The notes beneath the pieces are model-generated. The model was given only the letters and a program-made list of their open reading frames with translations, did no database searches and was not told the origin of the DNA. DNA of 61,439 bases, the filler included, from Sphacelaria rigidula (lineage: Eukaryota): the NCBI GenBank assembly GCA_964200075.2. It is 4 parts of 4 records of this genome, joined end to end, with 100 filler letters (N's around TTAATTAATTAA, not from the genome) between each part and the next. Parts side by side here need not be neighbours in the genome. Positions count along the whole stretch, not along the records: positions 15,389 to 30,672 come from CAXNAA020001821.1; 3 more parts are not named here. One strand, given 5' to 3'. The position numbers were made by a program, and so were the translations under genes. Positions 4,447 through 30,672 of this stretch are shown here, in pieces; the stretch's first letter is position 1; every line of letters starts with the position of its first letter.

Positions 4447-4643
4447 CGTCATTTTCGAAGAGAGATACTTTTATATTGGGTCGGAGATGTCGTCCAACAA
4501 CACCCGTTGAACAAACGATATAGGTCTATGCGAAAAGGCGCAGCAGCTCGTGAACTAGCCCGAGAACACTCGGCACGATTGTCATTTCGGGCTATAGTCT
4601 CATTTCTCGTTCGCAATACCTGCGCTCTTTTTCGAAGAAACGT

Positions 4644-4850
4644 TTGCCGAAAGGTGCATATTTTTGGTACAGAGCTATGAATTCGCGGTGGTGGCTGGGG
4701 AAGATTCATTTGAAAGGTCCTGAGGCGGACGATTCCTATTACATCCGCTTCCTCGTTGATCCAAGTCCTCTCAAGATCCGTCTCCACGACGATTACTATA
4801 CCGAGATGCCGACCGCTCGCCGAGGATCTTGGTGCCTACAACGACATGAC
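4644..4850 (+). other. Tudor/SH3-like barrel after the chromodomain (element 1)
   Basis: LPKGAYFWYRAMNSRWWLGKIHLKGPEADDSYYIRFLVDPSPLKIRLHDDYY resembles the G..V......WW.G.I........Y.I.F.D.....L Tudor pattern. An aligned segment exists in elements A and B. Confidence 0.55.
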
Positions 4851-5007
4851 AAAGGGGACATCGACACAGCTGTCTTGCGCAACCCCGACATGGCGTGGGA
4901 CACGGAATAATCTTGATAGCGAATTGCGTTCCTTCCGATTTTATTCGTGTTCTTTGAAATCCCCCCCCCCCCCCTTTTTTTTTTTCCTTTTTTTGTCGTT
5001 GTGTGCT

Positions 5008-5017
5008 NNNNNNNNNN
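5008..5017. other. 10-N assembly gap with duplicated flanks
   Basis: GTGTTCTTTGAAA-polyC-polyT occurs on both sides (about 4947-5007 and 5029-5080), consistent with an unmerged overlap. Confidence 0.85.
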
Positions 5018-7602: not shown

Positions 7603-9349
7603 TCACACCTAGGTGATGCGAGTGATCGTTTAATTCCGTATATTCGTAGAGGGAGGGGAAGAATAAGGTTTTTGCACAGCTGATGTGATCATTTCCTCAT
7701 TCTCGACCCCTTGGGGGGAGGGGGGGGTGGGGGGTGGCCTTGGCGCCGTGACATTTCGACGTGGGCTCCCTTGGCTACAGCTACACAGTGTACCAATAAT
7801 ACCTGCGCATCCTCATAATCAACCCTACTCGGCGGGATGCAACAGAGCAGTTACAGCTACACAGTTATGGGTGCGCCTGACCCCCCAAAATGGACACAAA
7901 AAGGTGTCACCGACCAAAGGTACGAACAGGCCGGAGATCTCGTTCATCCCCTGATTATGCACGCCGTGAAATCTCCCAAAGTACGTGTGTGATTTGAGTG
8001 GGGTTTCCACTTGACGATTTCCCATTTTCGTCGTCCCGGACTGCGAACCACGGCGTGCCTAGGCTACTCACCGGCGTTTATTAGTTCAAGCTACAGTCTG
8101 ACACCATTGTGGAACCAAAGGAGGTATTACAGCGGATACTAAAAAATGGGGTCCATCTCCAAAATGAGGTTCAAGTGGCATTTCGTTTTTGCAGGGATCA
8201 CGCAAAATACTCACGAACGAGCGAAGCTATCTTCCCCCCAAAATTCCGCAGCAGTTAAGCAGCTGTGGCTGGGTGCACCTAACGAATGCGGTGTACACGC
8301 GTGTCGATGACAATATCACCAGAGAAAAAAGCAACGACAGAGAGGAAGCTCCTCGCCCGTGTCCTTTGTGTCCTGGGTCGGCGATTACCAATCGCTGGAG
8401 AAACTGGCATCATCGATGTTACCAGCATGTGCCCAATTGCCCATGTGCCAAAACATTGAGCTGCGGAAATAGTTCCTCTCTTCTTGCCTGTCGAGCTCAC
8501 GAATGCGAACATCGATTTCTCTCTGCCTCTTCTTTTGGACAGGATGCGCCTCTGTGCGCTGAAAAGCATGTCGTTGAAAAATAGGGCAACGCTCCCGTCA
8601 CCGCTACTATTGTTGTTCTCTGTCACACACATGCCAGCAAGGGCGGTGGTGCGGCGAAAAGAACAGATATATCCAATTTGAACTTGAGGGGTATAATTCA
8701 TCGTTGATTTTACCCGACATGTATGTGAGCGACCCTCTGGGTGCCCAACGACAACAGCGTGCGAGACGCCAGTTGGGGGAGGGGGGGGGGTATGAGACGT
8801 CAAACACTTGTGGAGACCTTTTTGACATGCGGAGTGAAAAACGATACCTATGGTGGTGATCTAGTCGTTGCGAGCGTGGTGCAGAGGGGCGCGTCCATGT
8901 TGCAATCTGGAGCACGCGCGCTGGCTCCGTGAACATACAGTAGCAAGATATAATTTCGACGTGACGAGGTCACGCATTACCACCTGGGGCGACACATGAA
9001 CCCTGAAGGTGCATGGTGTACGACGTATCACGTGAGAGTGAGCGACGTTTTGACGTACGTCTGATAAACGCCGATAGGAGTTTTTTTTACACCAATTAGA
9101 TTCAAAAATAGATTTTTCAGGCCGAGGGGACGACAATATCGATACTAGTGCTGGCACTAGTGCTAGAAACCTGCTGGAAAGGATTTCGGCGGAGGAGTCT
9201 GGAGGCTGGGAACAACCTGAAGCATCATGGGCGCGTGAAGGGGGTTCTAGCTGATGGTAGCTGCAGAAAGGCGGCTGGCTTGTGATTGATCCGGACTGGA
9301 GACTTGCTGAAGCTGCGTACAGCGGGAGTTTAGAGGCTCCTACAACTGT

Positions 9350-11206
9350 GTGGTGCGGCGACGAAGCAAGGAAGAGTGCAATTCGCAAAGGTCCGCTGAC
9401 CTGCAGAAGGTTCGCAGACAGCCGGTTACAGCTATGGCGACACCCGTGATCATGCGGGGACTTGAGACCTCCCCAATACGGGGTAGGTACTCAGAGAGTG
9501 CATCTCGCACGTTTATTACAAAGTACTTTGAGTACAAGAAGCGTGTGAAGCACGCTAAAGCAGGGGGTACTGTGCGGCATCAGGTGGTGCCAATGGCTCA
9601 ACAAGTGCCAACTTATGTGCAAAGAGTGTTTGCTCGTTTGGAGCATAAACATATCACAATCACCCCGCCGCAATTGATTGCGGCGATAGGAAAGTATGCT
9701 GGGCATGCGGACGGCACTTGCCATTGTTGTGGCCAGGTCGGCCATTACGCGCGCGATTGCCCAACGCCTTCCGGTGGAGAGTTTGGGCAATCTCATGCCG
9801 CGCGCCATCAGCATCGTGAGCACAAGGGCAAAAGACAAGGTAATCGTGGTGGCGGCGGCGCATCCTCCAGCGGTGGAGGGTCGCAGTCGAGTTCTCAGCA
9901 GCAGCAGCAGCAGCAGCAGGGACAGAGACGTCAGCATGGGTCTGGTTCTGGGTCCCGCGCCGCTGTAGGTGCTGCTGCTTCGCTACGGGCGGTACAGGTG
10001 GGACCGACTTCTAGAGTGTCGAACACTGCGCCGGCGCTGGTGGTGGCGCCGGCGGCGACACCGGCAGCAGTGCCAGACGCGACGCCTGCTGACGCGCTGG
10101 TCGGAGGTTCGCCAAATTCTTGGTCTGCTGGCTGGGGGTCATACCCGCCAGCGGTGTCGTTTAAACCTGCCGGGGCGTGTTCGCCTGCGCAGCTTGCGCA
10201 GCCGTGGCGTCAAGTGAGATTAGCAGCGCATCGGTCGGCGAAGATATTGCCAGTGGAGTTTGCGGACAGATACGTTCCTGCGGAGCAGTGTCTTCCAAAT
10301 CAACGGGAGCGTGGCGCCATTGCGGTTCGGGCTAAGTGGGATTCAGGCGCCTATTTAGCGGGTCATGTGAGTCTGTCGGTACAGATTGTAGAGATGTTGA
10401 AGCGTCTTCTCCCGGGTGTGCCGCTGCGCATTCCGTTTTCGCTCGGGGTGCGGCAGGCCATCACCGCGTCGGGTCAGCATGTGTACGTCACAGAGCGTGC
10501 TGTTCTGCTGCAGCTCACTTTCACGAGTTCCTGGGGGGCGGCGCAGTTGCCTCCGATCTCGTTTGCGATCATGCCGGGGTTGGGTGGCGTTATTCTTCTT
10601 GGGTTGCCGACGCTTCAGGATATTGGAGTCGACGCCCGGCGATTGTGGGACTCCATGAAGACGCGGATGCCTCCGCCTGGTCCGCGCTTGGAGACGCCCG
10701 CCGTTTTGGGTAGTCGTCGCGTGAGCCTGTCCATGGATGCTTTTCAGAAGGCTGTGAGGCAGGTGACCGAGGAGCGGGATGCGGCGGTGGAACGCTCGGT
10801 AGAGCGCGGCCCGGAGATGTTACTGATTCCGGCGGATGAGGAGCCCGCTCGGAAGGTCGCGCTGAAGGAGAGCGTAACGAATACTGGGGCGACAGGCCTC
10901 AGCGTCTCAGAAGCGGAGCGCCTGCGCGGCATATTGCATTACCGCGCCAACGCGTTTCGTCGTGCGCTGCGGGGGGATCTTCCTGCGCGTGGAGCCCATG
11001 CGTGTTCAGCCGAAGCCTGGGGCGCCCGCGGTGAAGGCAAAGCCGCGCAGTACGATACAGTGAAGTCGAGTTGGTTGGCGTTGTGCATGGTGGCTCTTTT
11101 GGCGCTCGGGTTGGTGTCAAGGAATTTGCCGGCGGGGTGGTCCAGTCCAGATATGGCGTTTCCTAAGAAAGCTGCATCGTGGATGGAGGGCAGGCTGCAG
11201 GCGTAG
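9350..11206 (+). pseudogene. gag: gag-protease-truncated RT ORF of element 2
   Basis: 618-aa ORF with a CX2CX4HX4C knuckle, (CAG)8 at 9896-9919 and a DSGA aspartic protease motif. It shifts frame near 10990 and lacks the RT YxDD core. Confidence 0.8.
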
Positions 11207-11559
11207 GCGGCAGCGAAGTATCTGGTGGCTCATGCCGTGACGCTGTTCCGTCCTCATCCTGATTGTCAGGTGTTCATGTCTCCGGATGCATCGGAGTGCC
11301 ATTGGCCATTGGGGTAGTTTGGTCATGCAGGTACCTACAGTTGAAATCCAAATGCCTGTGCGCGCTGTGGCTGTGTATGGTCCGTGTGAACCTGGTGTCT
11401 CGATGCCGTCCAAATCTGTCGTCCGCCAAGCGCAACGAAATGACCTTGGGACCGAAGATACGGACGTGAAATCTTTCGAGTCGGACGTTGGTACTAATAT
11501 CTCGGACACTGAATGTCTGTCTCGTGTGCATGTACGTGGCCGAAACGTGTTGTGGGTTC

Positions 11560-12960
11560 CAAGCTCCGACAAGCAGTTGTAGGTACGTCTGATGATTTGC
11601 GCGCACATGCGCGACGCCGGGCATCGTGGTGTGGCTGGGACGCTCGTGCGCGTGCAAGAGTTTTGTGTCTGGCAGGAGATAAAAACTCATGTGCGCGAAT
11701 TTGTCCGCCAGTGTCTTCACTGTGCTTACTCTAGGGTGGGGAATGTTGTTCCCCGCCCGCTCGGCGAAACTGTTTATGAGACCATGCCGAATGAAGTCGT
11801 CCATTTTGACTTCTTGTACGTGGGTGAGAGTGGCCCCTTCCCAAGGTTTGTCGGAGGGTGCTGGGTTTCGATACATTTCGATAATCATGGATTATTTGAG
11901 CAACTTTGTGGCTCTGGAACCAGTAGCAGTGTGTACTGCTGAATCGACTGCTTCATCTTTGCTAAATTGGTGCAAAACTTTAGGGATGCCGCGTGTGTGG
12001 GTGAGTGATACCGCCACGCATTTTAAGAATGCGATCTTAGCCCGATTGCGAGAGGCTTTGCACGTTGATCACCAGTTTGCGGTGGCGTATTCTCCGTGGT
12101 CTAACGGTACGTGCGAACGCATGATCGAGGAAGTAGTTTTTTTTTTTTTTGTTCTATTCTTCTCGAGCAGCGTGGAGCGGTTTCCGTGTGGGTGGGCGTG
12201 TTGCCGGCGGTGTAATGGGCACTCAATACAGCGAATTGTCGTCGGTACGATAGTATGCGGTACCACGTGATGTTTGGTCGTGCTCCTCGGACATCTTTCT
12301 CGGTGCTAGCGTCTTCGTCGGTGGGGGAATGGAAATGGAATGTTTTGGACGATGATCAAACCAAGTGTGCACTGCAAGGAGAGTCGGACTTGCAAGAGCG
12401 TTTCCACGTTCAAGTGCAGGAACGTGTTGCCGCTGAACGTGCGCATAGACGTGAGGAGTCTTCGTCGGCGTTGGAACTGCCGAATTTTGAAGCAGGCGAC
12501 TATGTCTTCTTGTATGCACGCGTGCGTCGTCCGGGTGTTACGCCCAAGTTGATGGCGACGCGGACTGGTCCGTGGAGAGTGGTTGGTGCTCACCACCCGC
12601 ACGTGTTTGAGATTTAGAACATTGTTTTCGGGTCGTGTTCAGACAGCCCATGTAGCTCGTTTGCGATTTTATGCAGACTCGTAGCTTAATGTTACGGTTG
12701 ACGTTAAGGATGTGTTCCAGCACGCTTAAGATCAGGGGCAATTTCAGATGGCTGGTTTCGTCCGAGTTTCAGAAGCAGACGATCGTTCGTTGATCGTGTT
12801 GGTCGACTGGGTTGGTTTCGAAGTTGAGGAGCGTACGTGGGAGCCTTTTGAAAATATTTTTGAGGCCGCTCCGGAAATTTTCAGAAAGGAGTTGCGTAAG
12901 GTGCGAGTGACTCGTGCCGTTGCTGCTCGCATTATGAGTGAGTTTGGTGTTCAGTCGTGA
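11560..12960 (+). pseudogene. pol: Integrase plus chromodomain of element 2
   Basis: AHMRDAGHRG...CLHC zinc finger, VHFDFLY, VSDTATHF, SNGTCER, RTGPWRV (GPY/F). Chromodomain LVDWVGFEVEERTWEP at 12748-12960. Several frameshifts and stops. Confidence 0.9.
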
Positions 12961-15288: not shown

Positions 15289-15388
15289 NNNNNNNNNNNN
15301 NNNNNNNNNNNNNNNNNNNNNNNNNNNNNNNNTTAATTAATTAANNNNNNNNNNNNNNNNNNNNNNNNNNNNNNNNNNNNNNNNNNNN
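15289..15388. other. Artificial contig linker
   Basis: 44 N + TTAATTAATTAA (stops in all six frames) + 44 N = 100 bp. Confidence 0.97.
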
Positions 15389-16257
15389 AATGAAGGGATG
15401 GGACTTCAACCTCATATTTTGTTTCAACCCCAAGAATTAGGATCGGCTGTTATTCAGCTTTCCTCGTCTGTAGTCCAACACTAGTCCACAGCACACCACA
15501 TTCCTTGAATCTAGCCTTCAACATCCCCTTACTGCTCTGACCGTCCGATCCGGATTACAAGTTTTTTCTCACTTTTAACACTTCAACATCGGACATACCA
15601 ACTCCCCTTTAGCCCGAGATCCGATTTATACTTGCTAAGTCTTGAAATATTGCAATTCCATCTTTGAACTCAGGACAAGTGTTCGTTGATCATGTTTTAT
15701 CCCGATTTACCCGTACACAAGTTCATATCTTCAAACTAGAACTAGTTCCATACAAAACCAAAGGCCTTCGAGAGTTCGGCTCACCACATCAGCCCATTCT
15801 GTGAACCTAAATCTCATCTTTAGTTGAGATGATTTCGGTGAACAAACTAATTTAAAAAAACGCCAAAAACTCTGGGGAGCCTCAATTTATCCCATTGATA
15901 CTCAACCCAGCCGCCCCCAACTCATTTGATTCCGACAGAAAAACTCAAAACCATGACTACATTCCTTATCGTATCCTACTTTAACATGCATTACACTTCA
16001 CAAATCGGCTCTCTTCATCGAAATTGCTGCCTGTGTTCGACCTACACGATTGTTACAACAGTCAACCCCAAAGTAAAACAGAGAAAACATTTCACCCAAG
16101 ATGATAAAATAAATCTAGCCATTTCATCGTACTTCTAGCACAGCTCCATTTCCGTCTCGTCGTCATGTACCAATGCCAAACCACACCAGTCATCTATATC
16201 TTCTGATGTCCGTCTTCAGATCCGATAATGATCGCACTTCTCCTGCGAAGGCTCTAG

Positions 16258-18684
16258 CTATAGCGTGTGCGCAAAGAATTTTGAAGTTCTCTTCTTCTGC
16301 ACATGGTAGTGCCAGCACCAATCCCCCACTTGGTTCCGAGAGGTGTTCAAATTTTCCTCCAGAAGATGAACATTATACCTCCGCCCAAGGTCCAACATCC
16401 TCAGAGTGTGCGTTCGTCTTTGAAAAGCCGCATCCTCCTGAAGATCCATCACTTGTACTAATTGCCACCCCCTCGTCTGCGTCAAATAATAAATATAACA
16501 ACCGACAAGTTGAGGGCCATAGATGTGAGGACCAGCGGTGACATTGCTCCTCAGTTCATAGCCTTGAGCCACAAATATTTCACCTCTTTCCCGAGCCTCC
16601 GTCCTTCTTGCCAGATTTATTCGGTATTTTCGATACTTCGCGTTATCCGGTTTTTCCATATTCGGGCTCCCCATCCAATATGTTAAAATTACCCTTCCAT
16701 ATTGTTTCAAGTCCTCTTCGTGTTCCCACCTAGGCCTTTCTAGATTCTCCCAATATAATAAATATTGAACTGAGAGTTTTCCACCCAAACCACGGGATAA
16801 ACGATGACTCACAATCTTTGTGGGCTTCAGCCTATATGTGTCCAACTGTATCGATACATCTTCCTCGGTCAAGTGTAACGGAGGTGATAGTTCCGAATAT
16901 TGACTCAACACGTGCTGACTCAAACCCCAGGGTAAAGATTTCGGCGGTTCCGGTTCATCTCTTGGATTGAAGCACCTCTTACATCTCAACACCGAAACTC
17001 GGGGACTCATGATTGCTCCTGGCTCATTTTTCCGCAGCTCAAGCAACAATAATTTGTCTCCCACGATTTCTCCTTTGTCCGAAATACCTGACCCTACCAC
17101 CAAGATTTTATATGGCCGTCCCCAGGAGTGAGACAGTTTAGACGATAGAACTGTTTTCCCCCCTTCCTTTACCGCATTCCCCCCTGACATAATTGTACCT
17201 TTTGTATCATAGACGAACACCCAATTGCCTACTTCCCACTTCGGCTTCCGATTTAAAGCCTCTTCCACCTGCTCGTTATTCGGCTCATGTTTGGATTTAA
17301 TCAAGTAGTCCTCTTGTTTAACAAGATCGTATGCTTTGATTTGTCGATCCTTCATCAGCTGTAAATATGCCAGTTGATCAGCCTTCAACCCTTGATGTCC
17401 ATATACACCTCTTCTCTCAAGGATAGTCATGGGTAACCTTGGATATCTCCCAATGTGAACCTCATTCGGCGCTAACCCAATCCCTCTACTTACATTGTTA
17501 TTGTGCGCAGAAATTGCACGTAGTAATAGCTTATCCCAATTCTTCTGGTCATCAGCCACCAAATACAACAACATTTGGCATAACGTGTGGTTTAATCGCT
17601 CAGCCATCCCGTTCGTTTGCGGATGATACGCACTTGTGTATCGTTTCACGGCTCCCAACATCTCATAGACAGTTTTTGCTACTTTTGCAGTAAACTCCGT
17701 TCCTCGATCCGACAGTAATGTGTGAGGACATCCCCATCTTGGAATATAATCGTGCACTAGAATGTCGGCACAACCTTCCGCTGTTGTCTCTTCTTTAGAA
17801 AGGGCATATGCTTCAGCATGCCTACTAAAGAGACCCACCATTGAAAGTATGTATGTGTTCCCCTTCATTGATTTTGGGAGCGGACCCAACAGATCAAACG
17901 AAACCATCTGCCCTGGTTGACTCGGCAGTGGTGAGGAAATAAGTGGCCACCTTACTGTGTCTCTTGGATTTTTCCGAGCTTGACATGTGTAGCATCTCCT
18001 GACCCAGAATTTAACCCTGTCCTTCATCCCAATCCACCAATAATACCGTTTCAACAAAGATAACGTGATACCTTCCCCCAAATGAATAGCTTCTTTGTGA
18101 GTTTGGTCCATTACCCAAGGTCTCAAAAGTAATGGTACATATGTTCTGGTTGGCTCTTCCCCTAAATACCTCTCAAATTGTCCCGGGTTTCGGTCCGATT
18201 GACTGGGTATTGGAGTCTGCTTCTTTACGAGTAACAAATCTCCATCCGATATTTTTAACAGTGTTCCCTGCTTCAGTAATCTTTTAAATTCAGATAGATC
18301 AATTCGTGTGGGAACCCCCTTCTCTTGATCCTTCGTCAATACTGTCACTCGTTTCTTCAAATATTCGATGACTGTTCTCGATGTGAGATCCTCTTGCTGT
18401 ATTCGGGCCCACTCATTTGTCGATCTCTGACATAAACGTTCCCCAAAACGGCAAGCTTCTTCTGCTTCCAGAGTCGGTGGTATCGTTGTTGCTGGTTCCG
18501 CACTACTGCTTCCTACATCGGTTGTGGGTTCAACTACTGCCACAGTTCTGTGTTCTTGTGGTTGTAACAATCTCCTCCCTATTTCCGTGATCGGACATGC
18601 CTCCAAAATCAAACCTTGGTCCCATTGTCCCCTGACCATGTTATCAATCTTTGGGAAAAATAACGGTGAGTCATCTGGTAACAC
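16258..18684 (-). CDS. pol: Integrase with chromodomain and Tudor-like tail (element A pol fragment, 808 aa open)
   Basis: THKEAIH...CYTC zinc finger; SFDLLGPL, LSDRG and GMAERLN (DDE); WEVGNWVFVY..WGRPYK. Chromodomain about 16696-16830; Tudor-like segment about 16304-16518. Confidence 0.92.
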   Translation of the reverse strand: MLPDDSPLFFPKIDNMVRGQWDQGLILEACPITEIGRRLLQPQEHRTVAVVEPTTDVGSSSAEPATTIPPTLEAEEACRFGERLCQRSTNEWARIQQEDLTSRTVIEYLKKRVTVLTKDQEKGVPTRIDLSEFKRLLKQGTLLKISDGDLLLVKKQTPIPSQSDRNPGQFERYLGEEPTRTYVPLLLRPWVMDQTHKEAIHLGEGITLSLLKRYYWWIGMKDRVKFWVRRCYTCQARKNPRDTVRWPLISSPLPSQPGQMVSFDLLGPLPKSMKGNTYILSMVGLFSRHAEAYALSKEETTAEGCADILVHDYIPRWGCPHTLLSDRGTEFTAKVAKTVYEMLGAVKRYTSAYHPQTNGMAERLNHTLCQMLLYLVADDQKNWDKLLLRAISAHNNNVSRGIGLAPNEVHIGRYPRLPMTILERRGVYGHQGLKADQLAYLQLMKDRQIKAYDLVKQEDYLIKSKHEPNNEQVEEALNRKPKWEVGNWVFVYDTKGTIMSGGNAVKEGGKTVLSSKLSHSWGRPYKILVVGSGISDKGEIVGDKLLLLELRKNEPGAIMSPRVSVLRCKRCFNPRDEPEPPKSLPWGLSQHVLSQYSELSPPLHLTEEDVSIQLDTYRLKPTKIVSHRLSRGLGGKLSVQYLLYWENLERPRWEHEEDLKQYGRVILTYWMGSPNMEKPDNAKYRKYRINLARRTEARERGEIFVAQGYELRSNVTAGPHIYGPQLVGCYIYYLTQTRGWQLVQVMDLQEDAAFQRRTHTLRMLDLGRRYNVHLLEENLNTSRNQVGDWCWHYHVQKKRTSKFFAHTL

Positions 18685-18847
18685 GTACGAAGAGTTGTCC
18701 GCTTTTTCTCCCCCACAAGTGTATTTCCCTTGCCCTTCGCTCGTTGTAGCTCAATCCATCTTTGGTTAGCTTGTTCAGAGGTCGTGAGCGGTGTTGCACT
18801 TACTTCTTTTTCCCCCATTTCGAAAACCGACTCAGGGTCTAGCCCAT

Positions 18848-20300
18848 TCAAGTTTGAATCGTGGGTACTAACCTACCGATCCCACGTGTCCATCCCTGAT
18901 CGAGTTTTTTTTTAATTCTCGGCCATACTCCATCAGCGCCAATAAAGTAGACATCCATGTCTCCTGGGTCCGTTATTCGGGCATCCCCAGACATATCATC
19001 AGCATTTGGCGGCTGTGGTAAACGAGACAACATATCCGCATTCGCGTTTACTCGTCCTGGTTTGTACTTAATTTCATAAGTGTGCGCACTTGAAAAGTCA
19101 TGCCAACGTTGAACCCTCGGCACTTTTTCTGCAAGACTCGATAAATTTCGCAAAGGCTGATGGTCAGTGTAAATTTCAAACGGCACTCCGTAGAATAGTG
19201 GTCTGTTCTTTTTGATGGCCCACACAATAGCCGCTGCCTCTAATTCGGACACACTCCAATTTCTCTCGTTGGGTAGTGTTCCTCTACTTAGGAAAACAAT
19301 AGGTCGAACAGTGTCATCTTTTTGTTTTCGTTCCACCACCGCGCCTAGGCCATCCAGTGATGCATCTGTAGTGAGCATAAATGGTTGTTTCCCTGAGGCT
19401 GTATTTTCGTTTTGCCCCGTCAATAATGATAACATGTCCTTGGCGATAGATTCATGCCCTTGTGTAAATTCAAAACGAACTCCCTTCTTTAACAAATGCG
19501 TTAGAGGTTTGAGTCTCGCAGCCATTCGCGGAATAAATTTACGGTAGTACCCTAAACCTCCCAGTAATGATCTGAGCTGAGATACATCAGACGGCATTGG
19601 CATTTGTTTCAAAGCCTGTACCTTATCCTGGTCAGGAGAAATTACCGCCGCGGAAATGTGATGCCCCAAAAATTTCGTTTCCTTCGTTCCAACATGTGCC
19701 TTTTTCGGTGCCAACTTCAAATTGTACTTGGTCAGTCGTTGGAAAAGACCTTCCAAGTGATCCACATGCTGCCGGCCTGTTCCGCTAAAAGTACAGACAT
19801 CATCAATGTAGAGTCGACATCGCTCCAACCCATCAAATATTCTCGCCATGATTGCCTGAAACCAACCTGGACTTCCACTGCATCCCATCGACATAACCAA
19901 CCACTCATATAAGCCACTTTGCGTACAAATTGCCGTCAACGGTACCGAGTCTTGATGTATAGCCACGTTAAAATATCCTGAGGTGATGTCCAAACATGAA
20001 AATATTTTGGCCCCTCCCAGTTCATCCAACAGTTCCTCAATAATGGGAATTGGTTACACCGGAATTATTGTACTATCATTCAACTTCTTGTAGTTACACG
20101 TGATTCGAATCGACCCATCCGCTTTGTTCACAACTGCAAGCGGGCTACTCCAGTTGGAGTAAGATCTCAAAATGCCTGCTGCCAGCATGCGATCAATTTC
20201 CACTTGCACTTTCTTTTGAACTGCCGGATTATGACGGTACGGGCGTTGTTTAACGGGCCTCGTTCCAGGTTTAAGTTCAATTTCAAACGGATCCACAGTG
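18848..20300 (-). pseudogene. pol: Reverse transcriptase and RNase H (element A)
   Basis: WSSPL, CNYKKLN, LDITSGY, LYIDD, TTDASLDG, ELEAAAIVWA, YTDHQPL, NADMLSRL. Frameshift near 20050 and a short deletion before RNase H. Confidence 0.95.
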
Positions 20301-22754
20301 CAGTACCCCAAATCCATTTTGTCTTTTGAAAATCGATGTGAATATTTGCGCAACAGTTCCCCCAAAATGTCAATGTCCTCAACCGTCCAATGTGCACTTT
20401 CTAGTCCAAACTTTATTTTTCTCATATGTGTGGGGAGACCCCTCCACATCTTCGCGAATGCTTGTTGTTGTTTGTCGTTTAAGCCTGACAAAACCGGAGC
20501 TTCTTCTAATATTTGGTCCACCATGAATATCTCTTCGGGTTCCGGATCCTTTGTTTCAGAAATCTTTACGTCCTCCAGAGAGCATGGTACCAAAGGTGCC
20601 CCCGCAGAGCCAAGAGTGGTATTTGGATACAACATCTGTCCTTCTAACCCGGTATAACGGAGAGGGATGATGGATTCACCTGCTTCTAAGATAATCTCAT
20701 GAGGAGACCATTCTGGATCCAGCGATACATAATGAGAGCCACTTCCTGCGGGAGTTCCGTCCATGTTACATAGTTTGACAGGAATCCACGACAATGTATC
20801 CGGTCGTATCGTATCACGAGACCCATTGTACACTACTGTAACTTGAGCTGACGAGGATTTTGGTTCGATAAAACCCACAGCATTGCGGACTTGTTCCGCA
20901 AACACACGATCCACAGAGTCAGTGTTGTTTCCTTGCAAGGTCATGACTGTTTCTCGTCCGTTCACATCACAATACGTACTGACTGGAAATAATCCAAGGC
21001 CATCACGTCCTACTAGAATGTCATAATTCATTGTTCCATCAGGTACGACATGGGCGTAAATTGCTAAACATGCTCGTCCATTCTGAACTGACATCCGTGG
21101 GTTGGGTCTTCTAGGCCACAGTCTAATATTCAACCGCACCTGTGAAGATGTGCACAACGGAACACCATTAAAGCCACCCCAAGATACCGGGTCTATCTCT
21201 CGGACACCTTCAATAGTTGCTGCCCCAACGTCAACCATTTTTTTCCATATTGAGTAATGAATAAACGTCGCTGGGCTCCCCGTGTCCACTAGAGCCTTTA
21301 CCTCCAAGGTTCGAGTTGCCTTTGGTCCTGAAAAGATTTGCGCCAGAGTCGAACTTTCCTTGCGGTTTAAACTCACTTCCCCCCCCTTCACTTGGTGGAA
21401 TTCTTCCAAGTAAGGTCCCTTCTTACCTCGCGCAACCTGACTAATTATTGTCGCTGGTACGCGGGCTGGGACCGGGTTGGCAGGCAAACGACTACCCGTT
21501 TTTGGGTCCAGCGCGTAAATACTTTCCGCTGGTGTCCGACTTGGGTCGTTACCTCCTCCCACTACTACATTACGCACTGCGTAACACGACGAATTATCAC
21601 GTTCGATTTGACGTGAAATATTTCGGGACGCCTCAACAGTTCTATTGGGAAAATCAATAGTCATGTAGTCCTGCACATCGTCACCATTGCCAGCTAATCC
21701 ACTTTCGTGTACGGTTGCTAGATCTCGGACAGGATCAGCCATGTTTGATCCTCCCTGACCTATATTACGGTTGCCCCGACTGTTGCGAGCTGTTGAGCTG
21801 TGTACATCGGGATCTCTAGTCGGAGAAACTTCACTTCTCTCCACCACAACGCTACTGATTGTCGCACTGGTGCGTTTCGTTTCTTCATGCACGGTGGAAA
21901 TCTCGGCGGAATAATTTTCATTTTCCTCTACCGGAGCATCACTATTATCTCGACTCTCATGGGCGGTCGTGCCATGTACAGTCAGAGATGTAGTCTTGGC
22001 GTGAGTAGTATCATTTCGATCAACTAGGTGACTACTATTATCATGGCCCTTGCCAATGCAGGATATTTTGCCTTGCACGGTGGAACCTTTAACGGCTTGA
22101 GCCTTGCATGTTTTCCCCAGTCCAAATGGGTGTCGAGGGCTGCCTTCAAAGCTAACTCGATCATGTATGTGGTACTCCTACCTCACCCTGGATGCTTACT
22201 TTATCTACTGGGTGTTCCATATTCTGTGACTGATCAATCCCAGCGGGTCCATCCGAAACCCTAGCTACAACCAACGGTTCCAATGATGCATCTCGGTTGC
22301 CTGCATATGCACTCGATGTTTTACTTTCACATAAAATATCGCTTAGAATAGGTGCGCAGCTAGGGGAGCGACCCCCACTCAATGCACTATTCCGACGGCC
22401 AGACCTAGATGTCGCGCAAGATTTCAACGCTAAGACCCCACTTGCGCCTGCCTGCATTGATGTGTCTGCAGGTTGGCTGACATTTTGATCTGTACAGGAT
22501 TTTGATTTCTTTCCAACTCTCGAATTTCCAGAACGAGGATGCGCAGTCCCCGCGTTGGATGTAAATGTTTCTTCGGAACCGCGATCCTTACCCCTTTGGA
22601 ACGTATTTTCCTTGTTCCCCAAAATGGTATTCTTCCCGTGCCAGGTCGAACCATCTGGACTGTGCGGACTAACCACAGTGTCAACATGAGTATCTGCAGT
22701 TTTTGCTGGAGGGTCAGGTCCTCCGATACTTAATACGGGCGGATGTGCTACCAA
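20301..22754 (-). pseudogene. pol: Pre-protease spacer, aspartic protease and PR-RT linker domain (element A)
   Basis: KALVDTGSPATFI and DILVGRD are retropepsin motifs in ORF 20054-22078. The upstream ORF 22161-22754 is low-complexity and joined by a frameshift near 22170. Confidence 0.85.
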
Positions 22755-22784
22755 TAAATTGGCCCAATTTTTATCGTCGCACCT

Positions 22785-25700
22785 TCACATTGTGCTTCTA
22801 TTTCGATGGTATGCACACAACCTGTGTTGCCATCTTCGCCATTTATCAGAAATTTCTTGTGGGGACCCTTCTCCAATTTCATGATGAATTATACCTGATT
22901 TATTTATGAATTCCTTGGGACAATCTCGAGCCAAGATATGTTCCGAGCTGCCACAATTCAAACAGAACGGGCCAAATGCTTTGCGTGCAGCATCCTTCGC
23001 TTCACGGGAGTTGAACGGTTCGTAAAATGGCGGATCCCTTCCTTTTTTTCCAAACCGATGATTTTGTTTCTGGCCAATAGAATTAACATGTTGCATCTCT
23101 GTGTCTTCCTCTTGGTACACCTCCTCGATACTCATTATTCCCCCAAAATTTTTGCTGTGCAACGCTTTCGCAAAGTGTCTGGACCTGGTTGTTACACCAC
23201 CGACACTACCCGTACCAAAACGTTTAGCAGCTACTGCAACAGAGGTGTTCGTGTCAAAATCTCTGAGAGCGTTCATCATTTGCTCAACATCATTGAAAGG
23301 GAGAGGCTGATGATGCCTGCCCGCAAAAGCCTGTGCACTGATGTTGGGAAATTGATCGTCAATGCCGTTTTTAATCGCAGATTGAATGGAACCATTACCC
23401 GGGGCCAATTCTCGACCAACACTTTGCACGTTCGCCACTAACAGTCTCAACTCAGATAAATATGTTGCAAACGTGGTTCCCGGTTCCACCGCAAAATTTT
23501 ACCAACAAACCCATGACACCAGCTGGGGTCACTTTGCTCAACGCCCTGCTTAGCATTCGGAGGACATGTTCAAAGGCTTCTGGACCCTTCGATCCCCTAT
23601 CTTGCATTCTGATTGCTTCATTTGTAACGTCAGCAATTCGCGTACGTAGTATGGATACTGCTTGAATCCCTTGGGGGGGGATTTATTTCCTCCAATAGAC
23701 TTCAGTAAATGTTTTTGCAAACATTTTACCCAACCCGGGTGCCAATCATCAGGGTCGGTATCCCCCACAATTACACGCATATCATTAAGGGAGTCCCTCA
23801 GAGCGGCACCCAAAAGCTACTAGATCCGCCACGTCGTGATTAGGACTGAGCGGTAATTTTGGCAATTCAATTAAAATGGACGTATCCATTTTTGCATATT
23901 CTCTCGCAATATCCGTCGAGGACTTTTTTGATGCTGGCGCCAACATTTCAGACACATGGTTGTTTGTTGCGACCTGTGTCGGTGCTACCCGTCGTACCAC
24001 CTCTGTCTGCGAATTTTCTACTTTTGTATCCTGCTCTGACAGCGTTTCTTCCTCGTACCTTCTATTGAAGTAATATGAGGGATGACCCCTTCCTCGTCCT
24101 CGGTTGCCTCTGGGGTGGTGTTCCTGCCAACTCCCTGAGCTTCCACCTCCTTCCGACCCAGACTCCTCCACACCTCTGTGATCCTGCGGCTGCTCCCGGG
24201 GTCCAGACTGATGTTCTGTACCATGTTTTGCTTTAATGGCATTATATTCTAGCCAGTCTGAGAGAGGCCAAGTGGCCGGGCACGTTTGTTTCAGCAACTT
24301 GTATTCCGTGAACGATATACTGGGTGGTTGCGCCGACTCCGCCGTGGTTGGACGTTGATTTTGCCGCACCGGATTCATTTGCACCGCCGGCTGGCGGTGC
24401 ACCTCTTGCTCAATAGCGGGCGCCGTTGAAATCCCCTCAGGGGAGTTGGATTCCCCCAAACTCCTCTGATACTCGGCATGTTCCGCCGGCCCCATCCTCT
24501 TTGGTAACACATTCGCCTTCGTAACATGTTCCACGGTTGTGCTCTCTCTCTCCCCACGGGCATCCAACAAGGCCGCTTCCCCGTCCAGTTCTTCTTCCAT
24601 CAGAGATTTCTTTCTCTTCTTCAACCCGGCTAGACGCGCCATTATTTCATCCAACTCCCCGCTGACCTCTTCCTTTTGCGCCCTCACCACGCTCAATTTT
24701 TCTTTTAGGCTTTTGAATCTTGTCCCTCCCGCTTGTAGCATCCTACGAGACGTCTGAGGGGACAGTGTGACGGCAGACATGGAGATATCCCCGTCTGTGC
24801 GATCAGTGGAAATGTTTTTCTCAATATAGGGCTTGCCTACCGCCTGGGCGTAGGTTATCTTTGCATTCTTTCGCTTCACCACTTTCCACTCGGGATCCGC
24901 CAATTCAGACACCTTGCGGGACTCCAGGTCAGTGCCCAGGGTGGCTGACAAACGACGGGCCATTTCTTCATCTTTACGCATTAATCTTTCCATACGCTTT
25001 TTCCTACTCGCTGCTGCACGAAGTTCAGCTTTATGTAGGATTCGCGCATAAATTTCATCACCCTCGGTATCGGAGTCATCCGAAGAGGTTCCCTCAAATT
25101 GGGGATGCGACCTCTCTACCGCCATGCGTTCCACCCAGCGACGTTCCACAGCTGCTGACTTTTGAAAACTGGGCGCCTCCTTTTTGAGACTAGGCTCAGC
25201 CAACACGGGCCTCGTCATCCTCGACGGAATAGGAGTAAAGATTCCACCCGGCGCTGCCACGGTCGTTACTGGGCGATCACTATCACCAGCATCAATTCCC
25301 GTTGCCTTGCATCTATCCTCGTGCGACAGCGAGTCCAATAATTGACGAACATTTTCGACCACATCACTGATCACATCAGTTTCCTTCACCACAGAGTCAT
25401 CAACACAGGCACTATCAACCTCTACCTCATTATTGTGGGTCGTCACCTCTGCGATCGGAGAAACTATAGGTTCCCTCAGGGTGGCCACACTCGCCGAACC
25501 TGCCGTCTCCACCGGGGTGGTGTGGGGCACCATCACCCCTGGTAGCCCCACAACCGGTGCTTTCCCCTTCTGGGAGCTGGACGTCGCTGACTGTTTGTCT
25601 GCCGTGTAAAGAACGGTACCAGCAGCAGCAGTAGCGCGTGTGGTTATCATCGAGTTTGGTGACGAGTCACGGTGTTGCTGAGGCAACGAAGAACAAACAG

Positions 25701-26877
25701 CCGACTGAAAACCTTGATCTGTCCGGTTCGTTTGTTCTACTTTTACTGAAGCAGCATTTACCCCCTGTGTCCCGATAACTAGCCGCGATTCTTGATTCGA
25801 ACGTGCCGTGTCATTTCTGATATCATCACTACACTCAATATCTGACATGATTGATCGTAACTGTGACTGCGTTTTGTGAAATATCACGATCTGTTGTACC
25901 ACCCCCGATGCGGTCGACCTTCGCCTACTCTGCTCTACTTTTGACGTAAAGGTGTGAGACAAAGGGTCACCACCTGGTGCAGACGGGTGTGACTCGGTTT
26001 CTTGGTCTTTCTCGATGTTCCCCTCATGTTCATCATAATTTCTGGGTCGTGATACCTGCGTATCCTCTTTCATTTTTGCCTCATCACATTATTTTCTAGG
26101 ATCACCCACCAGCATGTCATCCGACTTTGTTGGTGACTGCACATTGCTACCAGGAAGCATGTTGTTCACATCACCGGGTGATTCAACTCTACCTCCAGCA
26201 AGCATTTCATCTTTGTCTATGGGTACCCGCACATTACTACCCGCAATACTGTCATGTACAGCACTGGGCAGTTGCGAAATTTCCTTCATATGACCTGATG
26301 TAGTGGACACGTCACCACCAATTTCGACAGAGAGTGAGGAAACCGACTTTTCCACGGTCCTACTTCGTTCACCTCTGTCTACAACATTTGATATGCTAGC
26401 AGCCGCCCTTTTTTCGGCTAGGCTTCCTACACATTTCATGTCGTCTGTCTCGGGGGTGTGAAACGTTGACGTTGTTTCATCAGTCAAGCTTCGCCCCCCT
26501 TCAAAGTTCACCACTGAGCCTACATTCGATACTTCGAGCGATTCATTTTGAGTCAAAACGTCACTCTGTATGTATGTCCTGTCATCTACCCGGTGGGCCG
26601 GAGGTGCCGCGAGATTTTCTCCGGTGTTACCTCTTACCCTCTCAGTGTGTAAATCTGAATTCGCTGAGAGCCCCAGCTGCGATTTTGGCGCGCTCCCAAC
26701 TGACTCCTCTACACATTTGTTTTCTGCATCTGGTATGTCAGACACGTTCGTGCCTGACACTACGTTCAAGCTATTAATAGCCTCACGCGACCGGTCCTCT
26801 GCTCTACATTGAGACCTCGTCCTTACCCCAGTCATCACTTTCACATCACTCTCAGAACGGGGTGTCTTACCGGACAT
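22785..26877 (-). pseudogene. gag: Very long gag-like ORF (about 1360 codons when repaired) of element A
   Basis: ORFs 26089-26877 and 23785-26073 are in frame across a single TAA. Further lesions lead to capsid-like TFATYLSELRLL and the knuckle CLNCGSSEHILARDC. Confidence 0.75.
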
Positions 26878-27039
26878 GTTGCGAAGCCGGTGTCGTCTGA
26901 TGTACGTGCTGACCTTGCTGAGCTCTCCCCCGGACTACCGTCGGACGCCACTGTCGTGAGAGAAGCTGTCGCTCACTTCTCCAAATGTAGATTCAACCGT
27001 TTTATGGGAGCTAGATGTAGTGTTCAGTTAAAGCCAAGA

Positions 27040-27355
27040 TGAGAGGAAGGTCCTCTGTGCACAAAATGCAAAGATGTGGTTTTATGCTTCTTTCTTTCGT
27101 TATTTGTACTGGAATTTGTATTTCCTCACACAATTCCGCACCCGTAACTGCTCTTGAAATAGCACACAAAAACCAAGACCGTCGACCAAGAAAACAAGGT
27201 GTAAAAAGGAGTGAAGCTAGTGGGGGTTGAGTGCCGAAAACCCTTCGGTCCTCAACTCGGTACTTCCCCATCCCTTTTGTCGTACTTGACCACCTAACCT
27301 GTGATGTTATTCTAAAAGAACTCACTTTTCAGTCTCAAAGCACACTCAACAGTCA
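27040..27355 (-). repeat. Candidate LTR between tandem elements B and A
   Basis: Starts TGA right after the purine tract AGAGACGAGGAAAGC; a TCA end occurs at 27040 (end uncertain). It does not match the 68 bp after the PPT of element A. Confidence 0.4.
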
Positions 27356-30300
27356 GCTTTCCTCGTCTCTAGTCCAACACTAGTCCACAGCACATCACAA
27401 TCCTTGAACCTAGCCTTCAACATCCTACTACTGTTCTGACCTTCCGATCCGGATTACAAGTTTTCCTTACTTTTAACACTTCAACATCGGACATAACAAC
27501 TCTTCTTTAGCCCGAGACCCGATTTATACTTGGTAAGTCTTGAAATACTGCAGTTCCATCTTTGAACTCAGGACAAGTGTTCGTTGATCATGTTTTATCC
27601 CGATTTACCCGTACACAAGTTCATATCTTCAAACTAGAACTAGTTCTGTACAAAACCAAAACGCCTCCGAGAGTTCGGCTCACCACATCAGCCCATTCTG
27701 TGAACCTAAATTTCATCTTTGGTCTAGATGATTTCGGTGAACAAACTAATTTCAAAACGCCAAAAACTCTGGGGAGCCTCAATATATCTCACTGATACTC
27801 AACCCAGCCGCCCCCAACTCATTTGATTCCGATAGAAAACTCAAAACCATGACTACATTTCATATAATATCCTACTTCAACATGCATTACACTTCACAAA
27901 TCGGCTCTCTTCATTGAAATTGCTGCCTGTGTTCGACCTACACAATTATTATAACAGTCAACTTCAAAGTAAAACAGAGAAAATATTCCAACCAAGATGA
28001 GAAAATAAATCTAGCCATTTCATCGTACTTCCAGCACAGCTCCATTTCCATCTCGTCGTCATGTACCGATGCCAAGCCACCCCAGTCATCTATATCTTCT
28101 GATGTCCATCTTCAGATCCGATGATGTTCGCGGTCCTCCTCCAAAGGCTCCAGCTATAGCGTGTGCGCAAAGAATTTTGAAGTTCTCTTCTGCACATGGT
28201 AGTGCCAGCACCAATCCCCCACTTGGTTCCAAGAGGTGTTCAAATTTTCCTCCAAAAAAAAAACATTATACCTCCGCCCAAGGTCCAACATCCTCAGAGT
28301 GTGCGGTCGTCTTTGGAAAGCCGCATCCTCCTGAAGAGCCATCACTTGTGCCAATTGCCACCCCCTTGTCTGCGTCAAATAATAAATATAACAACCGACA
28401 AGTTGAGAGTCATAGATGTGAGGACCAGCAGTGATATTGCTCCTCAGTTCATAGCCTTGAGCCACGAACATTTCACCTCTTTCCCGAGCCTCCTCCCGTC
28501 TCGCCAAATTCACTCGGTACTTTCGATACTTCGCATTATCCGGCTTTTCCATATTAGGGCTGCCCATCCAATATGTTAAAATTACCCTTCCATATTGTTT
28601 CAAGTCCTCTTCGTGCTCTCACCTGGGTCTTTCTAGATTCTCCCAATATAATAAATATTGAACTGAGAGTTTTCCACCCAAACCACGGGATAAACGATGA
28701 CTCACGATCTTCGTGGGTTTCAGCCTATACGTATCCAACTGTATCAACACATCTTCCTCGGTCAAGTGTAACGGAGGTGATAGTTCCGAATATTGACTCA
28801 ACACGTACTGACTCAAACCCCAGGGTAAAGATTTCGGCGGTTCCGGTTCATCTCTTGGATTGAAACACCGTTTACATCTCAACACAGAAACTCGGGGACT
28901 CATGATTGCTCCTGGCTCATTTTTCCGCAGCTCAAGCAACAATAATTTTTCTCCCACGATTTCTCCTTTGTCCGAAATACCTGGCCCTACCACCAAGATT
29001 TTATATGGCCCTCTCCAGGAGTGAGACAGTTTAGACGATAAAACTGTTTCCCCCCTTCCTTTACCGCATTTCCCCCTGACATAATTGTACCTTTTGTATC
29101 ATAGACAAACACCCAGTTGCCTACTTCCCACTTTGGTTTTCGATTTAGAGCCTCTTCCACCTGCTCGTTATTCGACTCATGTTTGGATTTAATCAAGTAG
29201 TCCTCTTGTTTAACAAGATCATATGCTTTGATTTGTCGATCCTTCATCAGCTGTAAATATGCCAGTTGATCAGCCTTCAACCCTTGATGTCCATACACAC
29301 CTCTTCTCTCAAGGATAGTCATGGGTAACCTTGGATATCTCCCAATGTGAACCTCATTCGGCGCTAACCCAATCCCTCTACTTACATTGTTGTTATGCGC
29401 AGAAATTGCATGTAATAATAGCTTATCCCAATTTTTCTGGTCATCAGCCACCAAATACGACAACATTTGACATAACGTGTGGTTTAATCGCTCAACCATC
29501 CCGTTAGTTTGCGGATGATACGCACTCGTGTATCGTTTCACGGCTCCCAACATCTCATAGACAATTCTTGCTACTTTTGCGGTAAACTCCGTTCCTCGAT
29601 CCGACAGTAACGTGTGAGGACATCCCCATCTTGGAATATAGTCGTGCACTAAAATGTCGGCACAACCTTCCGCTGTTTTCTCTTCTTTAGAAAGGGCATA
29701 TGCTTCTGCATGCCTACTAAAGAGATCCACCATTAAAAGTATGTATGTGTTCCCTTTCATTGATTTTGGGAGCGGACCCAACACATCAAACGAAACCATC
29801 TGCCCTGGTTGGCTCGGCAGTGGTGAGGAAATAAGTGGCCACCTTACTGTGTCTCTTTGATTTTTCCGAGCTTGACATGTGTAGCATCTTCTGACCCAGA
29901 ATTTAACACTGTCCTTCATCCCAATCCACCAATAATACCGTTTCAACAAAGATAACGTGATACCTTCCCCCAAATGAATAGCTTCTTTGTGAGTTTGGTC
30001 CATTACCCAAGGTCTCAGAAGTAGTGGTACATACGTTCTGGTTGGCTCTTCCCCTAAATACCTCTCAAATTGTCCCGGGTTTCGGTCCGATTGACTGGGT
30101 ATTAGAGTCTGCTTCTTTACTAATAACAAATCTCCATCCGATATTTCTAACAGTGTTCCCTGCTTTAGTAATCTTTTAAATTCAGATAGATCAATTCGTG
30201 TAGGAACCCCCTCTTCTTGATCCTTTGTTAATACTGTCACTCGTTTCTTCAAATATTCGATGACTGTTCTCGATGTGAGATCATCCTGTTGTATTCGGGC

Positions 30301-30672
30301 CCACTCCTTTGTCGATCTCTGACATAAACGTTCCCCAAAACGGCAAGCTTCTTCTGCTTCCAGAGTCGGTGGTATCGTTGTTGCTGATTCCGCACTACTG
30401 CTTCCTACATCGGTTGTGGGTTCAATTACTGCCACAGTTCTGTGTTCCTGTGGTTGTAACAATCTCCTCCCTATTTCCGTGATCGGACATGCCTCCAACA
30501 TCGAACCTTGATCCCATTGTCCCCTGACCATGTTATCAATCTTTGGAAAAATTAACGGTGAGTCATCTGGTAACACGTACGAAGACTTTACCGCTTTTTC
30601 TACCCCCACAAGTGTATTTTCCTTGCCCTTCGCTCGTTGTAGCTCAATCCATCTTTGGTTAGCTTGTTCAGA
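27353..30672 (-). mobile_element. pol: Element B: second copy of the element A family (integrase, tail, 3' UTR), cut by contig end
   Basis: Highly similar direct repeat of 15454 to about 18779. ORFs 28987-30609, 28619-28996 and 28154-28603 are separated by two frameshifts. Confidence 0.95.

Follow-up and report, generated by a model that had tools for sequence, protein, structure and literature searches.

In a 61,439-nucleotide stretch of DNA from Sphacelaria rigidula (assembly GCA_964200075.2; four parts of four records joined with filler, hereafter the window), the integrase of a retrotransposon, copy A, carries a conserved C-terminal extension. A divergent chromodomain, an arginine-rich helix, a hairpin and a Tudor-like barrel are predicted to follow each other there in one open reading frame (ORF). 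The position, predicted fold and conservation of this module lead us to propose, with modest confidence, that it acts as a composite chromatin tether for integration-site choice.

The sequence-only reading of the window had assigned the chromodomain, helix and barrel peptides to one open frame at 16258–16830. The single frame stands, on the minus strand: the peptides are the last 190 residues of a minus-strand, stop-to-stop ORF of 830 codons (16258–18750), and a plus-strand reading of this segment is rejected on account of its many stop codons. In the same ORF, the H2C2 domain and the DDE catalytic core (rve) both score above the curated Pfam thresholds. The ORF directly upstream (18848–20053, minus strand) matches RVT_1 and RT_RNaseH, which gives copy A the order reverse transcriptase (RT)–RNase H–integrase; element 1, a second retrotransposon family in the window, has the same order (Pfam). 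Because of the H2C2 and rve domains, the upstream RT/RNase H and a GPY/F-like motif, we assign 16258–18750, by its domain content, to the 3′ end of pol of a Ty3/gypsy-type (Metaviridae) long terminal repeat (LTR) retrotransposon. The motif reads W-G-R-P-Y-K-I in copy A and W-R-G-P-Y-K-I in copy B, the second copy of this family, and we take it to mark the C-terminal domain proper of the integrase, which precedes the extension. Judged from the translation, the chromodomain-to-barrel tail is an extension past that domain. The features of the copy A ORF are listed below; residue numbers from 1 to 220 denote its C-terminal 220 residues (611–830).

16258–18750, minus strand: copy A integrase with C-terminal extension (P0001); ORF, Pfam Integrase_H2C2 E 3.4e-14, rve E 2.1e-10
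17968–18138, minus strand: H2C2 zinc-binding N-terminal domain, residues 205–261; PF17921, 53.2 bits, cut-off 25.5
17620–17922, minus strand: integrase catalytic core rve, residues 277–377; PF00665, 41.2 bits, cut-off 32.6
17104–17124, minus strand: GPY/F-like motif, residues 543–549; read from the translation
16672–16830, minus strand: divergent chromodomain, residues 641–693; called from AlphaFold2 (AF2), VIA and phmmer
16588–16641, minus strand: conserved arginine-rich alpha-helix, residues 704–721; AF2 helix 94–111
16504–16587, minus strand: hairpin and linker, residues 722–749, with conserved G120-Y121; AF2 strand 121–124
16303–16503, minus strand: predicted Tudor-like five-stranded beta-barrel, residues 750–816 (~67 residues); called from AF2, VIA and conservation
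16258–16302, minus strand: short basic C-terminal end (…FFAHTL) and stop codon; translation

Predicted fold of the extension

AF2 models the 220-residue C-terminus from a 63-sequence alignment with a mean predicted local distance difference test score (pLDDT) of 87.7 and a predicted template modeling score (pTM) of 0.78. The tail alone (108 residues, 45 sequences) reaches a pLDDT of 89.0 and a pTM of 0.78. In the chromodomain region the model has strands at 33–43, 49–57 and 64–67 and a helix at 68–83, with pLDDT above 90, which is the three-stranded sheet and C-terminal helix of a chromodomain fold. We compared the models with 48,161 PDB representative chains using VIA, a structure comparison that is independent of Foldseek; the 50 best matches are listed, and Z differences within one unit are ties. 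The chromodomain superposes on Chd1 (Z 7.0), Chp1 (Z 6.8, root mean square deviation (rmsd) 1.8 Å, 53/55 residues) and HP1 (Z 6.5, rmsd 1.6 Å, 51/53), and phmmer aligns it to the Swi6 chromodomain with an E-value of 0.033. Pfam yields no match at E ≤ 10, Chromo (PF00385) included, for the C-terminal 280 residues of copy A. PF00385 is found in 4 of 45 family members (best E 0.0029), and neither copy A nor element 1 is above the gathering score (element 1: E 0.0077, 16.6 bits, cut-off 25.1). Both "chromodomain" and "Tudor" are thus used here as fold-level calls on predicted models. The histidine H39 of the chromodomain is conserved at 0.85. The segment in front of the chromodomain carries …L-R-C-K-R-C…L-P-W-G-L-S…P-P-x-H-L-T… and is modeled with a pLDDT of 47–63.

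Past the chromodomain, the helix presents four well-conserved arginines, R97 (0.81), R100 (0.83), R106 (0.86) and R110 (0.77). The sequence-only reading had looked to structure prediction for a Tudor-like barrel, and AF2 returns one with high confidence: five strands, at 142–147, 151–160, 171–175, 180–184 and 201–206 in the 220-residue model, ending in the conserved W-C-W-H-x-H strand. The top VIA match of the tail-only model is 7DE9, the Tudor domain of PDS5C/RDM15 bound to H3K4me1 (Z 7.4, rmsd 1.9 Å, 57/58 residues, 16% identity). Further matches include TbTudor (6.6), the PWWP domain of 6KCO bound to single-stranded DNA (ssDNA; 6.3), SETDB1 (6.1–6.3), PHF20L1 (6.2), ERCC6L2 (6.1), the SMN Tudor domain (Z 6.1, rmsd 1.9 Å, 55/56), TDRD3 (Z 6.1, rmsd 1.9 Å, 53/55) and the SAWADEE domain of SHH1 (6.0–6.1). 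By title, the 11 best matches are all Tudor, PWWP, SAWADEE or Spindlin, and in a VIA run over 997 Foldseek-ranked chains 47 of the 50 matches listed belong to the Tudor or royal family. The predicted model therefore has the SH3-like five-stranded barrel, superposable on solved Tudor domains, that defines a Tudor fold, and a Tudor-like fold of the tail is supported at the level of the model. The more specific resemblance to PDS5/MSH6-type Tudor domains, read earlier from the sequence, holds in so far as 7DE9 is the best structural neighbor, but other neighbors tie with it within one Z unit and no sequence profile matches.

Aromatic residues occur near the expected cage at 144/145 (0.76–0.81), W152 (0.89) and Y/F182 (0.65), as positions in the sequence and not as cage geometry. 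We assigned them by eye from the AF2 strands and a presumed Tudor layout, which puts 144/145 at the end of beta-1, W152 at the start of beta-2 and Y/F182 at the start of beta-4. Foldseek against the BFVD viral models gives no match at E ≤ 0.001, only uncharacterized phage and giant-virus proteins, and the ESM Atlas gives no usable match. A derivation of the barrel from a duplicated chromodomain is unsupported, as hhalign aligns the chromodomain and barrel profiles over 5 columns with a probability of 0.14%.

Conservation across copies and relatives

An exhaustive HMMER search with the 220-residue C-terminus recovers 254 proteins at E ≤ 1e-3; of these, 90 reach E ≤ 1e-10 and 5 reach E ≤ 1e-30, and all are protein fragments from ENA or Logan assemblies. 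With 254 database relatives at E ≤ 1e-3, a chance origin of the open frame can be regarded as excluded. We examined 156 database proteins, mostly at most 50% identical, with the family hidden Markov model (HMM). The whole barrel is spanned by 32, of which 29 terminate within 30 residues past the family match, and 10 of the 156 hold chromodomain and barrel in a single frame. A further 76 cover the chromodomain only; these are mostly short fragments and hence no evidence that the barrel is absent. In a search of protein databases for the region 611–830 within proteins of 456–1453 residues or longer, no full-length pol with the tail was found; 8 fragments matched in the search for proteins of similar length. 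The …FFAHTL terminus is common to 6 of 8 close database relatives. A metagenome locus scan with a smaller alignment gave 183 pattern matches, none of which was confirmed.

Mean pairwise identity, calculated from sequences that cover at least 80% of a segment, is 0.43 for the chromodomain (94 sequences), 0.39 for the basic helix (92), 0.33 for the barrel (37) and 0.25 for the hairpin and linker (68), the lowest of the module segments listed. Between the GPY/F-like motif and the chromodomain lies a segment (residues ~581–640; window 16920–17010, minus strand) whose family pairwise identity of 0.43 equals that of the chromodomain. In the barrel the best-conserved positions are G140, W152 (0.89), L154, D177 (0.85), V184, L186 (0.91) and G199, together with W201 (0.89), C202 (0.92), H204 (0.72) and H206 (0.86) of the last strand; W203 is a conserved aromatic as well, and aromatics are frequent at 142, 144, 145, 171 and 182. 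The pattern W-C-x-x-x-H (window 16303–16320) is kept in both subfamilies, as W-C-W-H-x-H in the A type and W-C-L-Q-x-H in the element-1 type. Semi-conserved histidines are also present at H171, H185 and H218 which, with H39 of the chromodomain, possibly form a metal site or an inter-domain contact.

Within the window the module occurs three times, as follows for the two occurrences outside copy A.

28154–28813, minus strand: copy B chromodomain–helix–barrel module; 92.7% protein identity to copy A over 220 residues
27353–30672, minus strand: copy B as a whole, 3′ non-coding block and integrase; 94.4% DNA identity to copy A
4213–4578, plus strand: element 1 pre-chromodomain segment, chromodomain and basic helix, in frame; family HMM positions 1–124, E 6.6e-56
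4575–4853, plus strand: element 1 barrel, found only in a shifted frame owing to a frameshift at the helix/barrel junction; family HMM positions 124–217, E 6e-13 in a search space of 3 sequences

The DNA identity of copies A (15454–18779, minus strand) and B (27353–30672) extends over 3,328 bp, and the homology of copy B ends at the run of Ns that starts at 30673. Element 1 (~105–4853, plus strand) is a separate family with ~32–46% protein identity to copy A across pol. The earlier statement that the tail is intact in copy B holds for its presence and not for its integrity: the module has an in-frame stop inside the chromodomain (28619–28621) and a 3-base deletion near the C-terminus, with two 1-base indels upstream of it. 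Copy B is dead, as judged from the stop codon in the chromodomain. Likewise, the proposed alignment with element 1 is in frame through the chromodomain and helix up to 4578, but the barrel lies in another frame and element 1 is not intact either. By these alignments, the module occurs in two divergent families and is intact in the window only in copy A. Its long conservation, also claimed from the sequence, is supported both by the large, divergent family of 254 proteins and by the two divergent element families.

Comparison of copies A and B (Nei–Gojobori) gives a ratio of non-synonymous to synonymous substitution rates (dN/dS) of 0.18 for the whole ORF (68 synonymous and 46 non-synonymous changes; p=6e-18 vs neutrality) and 0.17 for chromodomain plus tail (p=4e-6). 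The chromodomain has a dN/dS of 0 (6 synonymous, 0 non-synonymous) and the helix/linker one of 0.10.

Candidate functions of the module

If the proposed tether exists, the four parts would act as one chromatin-tethering module: both royal-family barrels, together with the basic helix, would bring the pre-integration complex to nucleosomes of a particular histone state. The choice of insertion sites for new copies would thereby be biased, much as it is by the chromodomains of chromoviruses. We infer that the module binds chromatin, that it reads a mark and that it steers integration; binding to H3K79me or H4K20me with a resulting insertion bias is purely conjectural. Statements on published work here and below refer to excerpts of the cited papers. 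Integrase chromodomains target integration (Gao et al. 2008, cited in PMC11541908 and PMC12477816). As in chromoviruses such as MAGGY and in the brown-algal element ECR-1, the reader domain stands at the integrase C-terminus after a GPY/F-type domain, has a (here predicted) chromodomain fold and is presumed to tether the integrase to chromatin. Unlike the chromodomain of ECR-1, which is reported to keep all three cage aromatics (PMC11541908), the one described here retains one of the three. Unlike in chromoviral integrases, it is followed by a basic helix, a hairpin and the Tudor-like barrel, together ~135 conserved residues, and Pfam Chromo is sub-threshold or absent.

Several observations weigh against a reader function. 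The three-residue aromatic cage of the chromodomain is not kept in the Swi6 alignment or in the family: only the middle tryptophan remains (W57, 0.90 family-wide), the first position (31) being L/V/I and aromatic in 0.02 and the third (60) leucine and aromatic in 0.08. Many Tudor domains have a cage aromatic at the end of beta-3. By our by-eye mapping, that position is Met/Leu in the A type, which is the unfavorable case, and Phe-Leu in the element-1 type. All VIA Z-scores are below 8, a range in which the tool warns that a match may mean a common arrangement only, and SH3-like barrels that do not read histones (KOW, EF-P, CarD, the UvrD C-terminal domain and TraI) follow at Z 5.0–5.8. Foldseek against the PDB finds no match at E ≤ 0.001 for either model, a PDB profile search with the tail family has 0 matches at E ≤ 10, and in 45 family members no Tudor, Agenet, PWWP or Tudor-knot-type Pfam family is above threshold for the barrel, with Agenet (best E 0.02) and an SH3 family (best E 0.0054) each appearing below threshold in 2 of the 45. 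Finally, residues 736–830 (barrel and end) have a dN/dS of 0.53 between copies A and B (5 synonymous, 10 non-synonymous; p=0.20), which is not significantly below 1. The selection check proposed with the sequence-only reading thus points to constraint over the ORF as a whole but not over the barrel by itself, and for this reason we argue for constraint on the barrel from its deep family conservation and not from the A/B pair.

The same observations bear on other explanations. Rather than a methyl-mark reader, the barrel could be a generic SH3-like adaptor for a host protein or for nucleic acid, be it the end of the cDNA, target DNA or DNA on nucleosomes. Such an adaptor would strengthen intasome assembly or tether through a protein partner, as PWWP, KOW and CarD/UvrD-type Tudor-like domains do. 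The VIA neighbors would accommodate this, since they include the PWWP–ssDNA complex 6KCO (Z 6.3) and Spt5 KOW, EF-P domain I, CarD, the UvrD/PcrA Tudor domain and TraI (Z 5.0–5.8), as would the absence of a Tudor sequence signature in Pfam across the 45 members. A conserved, arginine-rich helix precedes the barrel, a basic C-terminal end follows it, and the most conserved face of the barrel is the last strand, W-C-W-H-x-H, not the usual cage loops. We nevertheless regard an adaptor as unlikely, as the best-scoring and best-covering matches are histone-reading Tudor domains, the integrase already has its own GPY/F-type C-terminal domain upstream, and paired readers typically show such a place right behind a chromodomain; the 50 VIA matches listed include no C-terminal domain of a retroviral integrase, which counts as weak evidence. 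The cysteine and histidines of the barrel (C202, H204 and H206, with H171, H185 and H218) could instead form a metal site, so that the tail would be a zinc-stabilized structural or dimerization module and not a mark reader, with a parallel in SAWADEE, whose second Tudor-like half bears zinc. The second domain of SAWADEE is among the VIA neighbors (Z 6.0–6.1); C202 (0.92), H206 (0.86), H204 (0.72) and H/Y171 (0.90, counted as F/W/Y/H) are well conserved, and W-C-x-x-x-H is shared by the subfamilies. Only two candidate ligands are near-invariant across both of these, however, residues i and i+4 on one strand would be too distant to share a metal without a bulge, and AF2 folds the barrel confidently without one, all of which makes a metal site improbable. 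That the tail is decaying, functionless read-through or a modeling artefact is highly improbable. Both A and B belong to dead elements and the barrel-only dN/dS is not significantly below 1, but the whole barrel is open in 32 of 156 mostly ≤50%-identical proteins, with a conserved core and C-terminal end, the module is present in two families only about 37–40% identical in protein, and the tail model has a pLDDT of 89.

A different question is whether the element is already known. Ectocarpus has four Gypsy lineages, three of them with putative C-terminal chromodomains (PMC12477816, Genome Biology 2025), and one element, Gypsy-10_Ec32, is described with 11,528 bp, 636-bp LTRs, a C-terminal TUDOR domain, many deletion derivatives and homologues in yellow-green algae (PMC12477816). 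The element described here shares with it a Tudor-type barrel that ends a Gypsy pol, a length of ~11.5–12 kb, deletion derivatives and a (probable) brown-algal or stramenopile host. It may be that our element is the Gypsy-10_Ec32 lineage in another genome, and that only the unnoticed chromodomain in front of the barrel is new; we consider this quite possible, though we lean against it. With 11,899 bp between corresponding points of A and B, the repeat unit of A is ~11.9 kb against the published 11,528 bp, the 3′ non-coding block of ~800 bp compares with the published 636-bp LTRs, the run contigs contain many internal-deletion joints like the many deletion derivatives of the published element, and that element likewise ends in a TUDOR domain (PMC12477816). 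On the other hand, the excerpted text keeps the Tudor lineage apart from the three lineages with chromodomains and does not ascribe one to it (PMC12477816). Its "TUDOR" was presumably found by a profile, whereas the barrel here matches no Pfam Tudor-type model, and the resemblance in size is loose in a comparison made by description only. By description, a tandem of chromodomain and barrel, with a barrel invisible to Pfam, sets our element apart. The excerpted text of PMC12477816 makes no mention of a tandem chromodomain–Tudor architecture, though its figures may show the architecture.

In other published systems, centromeric ECR elements have intact chromodomains (PMC11541908; preprint 10.64898/2025.12.07.692804), and Chromo and PHD, not Tudor, are reported as fused to transposable elements across eukaryotes (excerpt of preprint 10.1101/2021.11.30.470311). 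A literature search on Tudor domains with Gypsy integrases or chromatin readers returned a Tudor domain on a transposable element in PMC12477816 only, and one on C-terminal Tudor domains of retrotransposon integrases with targeted integration returned no report. Integrase–chromodomain fusions are therefore known and an integrase–Tudor fusion has been known since 2025, while the tandem of a cage-depleted chromodomain and a Pfam-invisible barrel appears to be undescribed. The structure 7DE9 is identified as the PDS5C(RDM15) Tudor domain, and MSH6–Tudor fusions are reported in brown algae (preprint 10.1101/2024.10.15.618488), which makes a host donor of a PDS5C/MSH6-type Tudor domain conceivable. 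Tudor domains of the MSH6 type occur in plants and in some brown algae. The PDS5C/RDM15 Tudor domain is the best structural neighbor of our barrel, but without a detected sequence-level relation, and the barrel differs from it in a 16-residue insertion before the last strand and in the W-C-W-H-x-H strand itself. Two small beta-barrel readers with a connecting helix also make up the paired readers of hosts (SHH1 SAWADEE, the extended Tudor domains of Papi and Qin, the tandem chromodomains of CHD1), which are parts of host regulators, whereas the module here is on a transposon integrase. The whole-model Foldseek list includes SAWADEE, extended Tudor and Clr2. Global superpositions of the whole model are poor (rmsd 11–15 Å over 127–190 columns, TM 0.2–0.4); helix plus barrel match extended Tudor domains over 92–93 residues (Z 5.3–5.5, VIA). 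No solved structure with the order chromodomain–helix–Tudor was found.

Surroundings in the window and brown-algal chromatin

Upstream of its integrase, the coding region of copy A (18750–26934, minus strand) is broken. In-frame stops form the ORF boundaries at 20053/20054, 22784/22785 and 26088/26089, and the frame changes within 18750–18848, in the overlap of two ORFs at ~22161–22177 and within 23498–23785. One of these stops separates 20054–22177 from 18848–20053, and the RT/RNase H frame differs from that of the integrase. Judged from its reading frames, copy A is dead, since its pol is interrupted before the integrase by a stop and a change of frame. Pfam finds no protease, gag or NADAR domain in the upstream ORFs (20054–26934). 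The only gag-like signal is a weak CCHC knuckle at 22785–23498 (E 0.09), a weak PRP1_N match is also present in these ORFs, and 23785–26934 (~1,050 codons) has no Pfam match.

15454–16257, minus strand: copy A 3′ non-coding block, i.e. 3′ untranslated region and putative LTR; homology to copy B stops at 15454; N runs at 15289–15332 and 15345–15388

Self-comparison of the window reveals no pair of LTRs in copy A. Its 3′ block recurs only as the 3′ block of copy B, which abuts the 5′ end of copy A, and N runs flank both copies. A single ~800-bp 3′ non-coding block (27353–28153, minus strand) lies between the stop codon of B and the 5′ leader and first ORF of A (26934–27352). Because there is one copy of the block between them, B and A look like a head-to-tail tandem that shares a single LTR-containing block, and the window contains no further copy of A's own 5′ LTR. 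Runs of Ns are located at 5008–5017, 15289–15388, 30673–30772, 34643–34652 and 46057–46156. As they adjoin the ends of element 1, copy A and copy B, the element boundaries in the window are partly an assembly artefact.

Sequencing runs, "algae metagenome" among their labels, contain up to 0.38 of the sampled words of the ORF, and hundreds of run contigs match it at 80–100% identity, many with internal-deletion joints. In contigs of four runs, joints in 16000–18750 bridge internal deletions of 70–1,034 bp in integrase and tail, and contigs consistently switch to other sequence at 16155 and 16234. Both features suggest that some members are deletion derivatives and that subfamilies differ in their 3′ ends. 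Together with the many matching contigs, they fit an algal genome in which the family is abundant and includes such derivatives, without singling out a brown alga. The 40 variant places listed, of 842 in the contigs, look like changes private to copy A.

Other parts of the window are repetitive as well. At 9311–12270 (plus strand) a GC-rich ORF of 631 codons with a CCHC zinc knuckle (E 2.6e-4) precedes an ORF with a weak rve match (E 0.001). By this gag-then-integrase order, the segment may be a fragment of a third, Copia-like retroelement. One 43–44-bp tandem repeat unit forms two arrays 0.8 kb apart (33571–33962 and 34799–35211; ~9 copies each, 77–85% matches). Direct repeats of ~520 bp with 80% identity, 2.8 kb apart (40185–40701 and 43031–43549), possibly represent the two LTRs of a small, old element. 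Repeats of 165–216 bp (83–92% identity), both inverted and direct, cluster at 50912–52107 and 60248–61368.

The sequence-only reading had linked the extra barrel to the chromatin of brown algae, and its description of that chromatin is borne out by the excerpted literature: brown algae have lost DNA methylation and PRC2/H3K27me, H3K79me2 and H4K20me3 are linked to repression, and H3K9 methylation is detected in some species only (PMC13076208). With DNA and H3K27 methylation absent and H3K9me confined to some species, the chromodomain–H3K9me route cannot work unchanged in brown algae. A stronger form of the tether would be a bipartite reader, in which the cage-depleted chromodomain, the basic helix and a host-captured PDS5C/MSH6-type Tudor domain, adapted to the brown-algal chromatin code, would recognize e.g. 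H3K79me2/H4K20me3 nucleosomes or H3K4me1 gene bodies and introns and direct new copies into a defined compartment. We regard this form as rather improbable. If true, it would make the module the first on a mobile element to target integration with two readers.

Insertion-site choice by retrotransposons is understood for few systems only. Where PMC12477816 reported a Tudor domain on a transposon, the module adds a tandem architecture and a large family, seen in 254 database proteins. As an expressible protein of 190 residues it provides a way to ask which chromatin state these elements recognize, and it may offer a new reader specificity that could be used as a chromatin probe.

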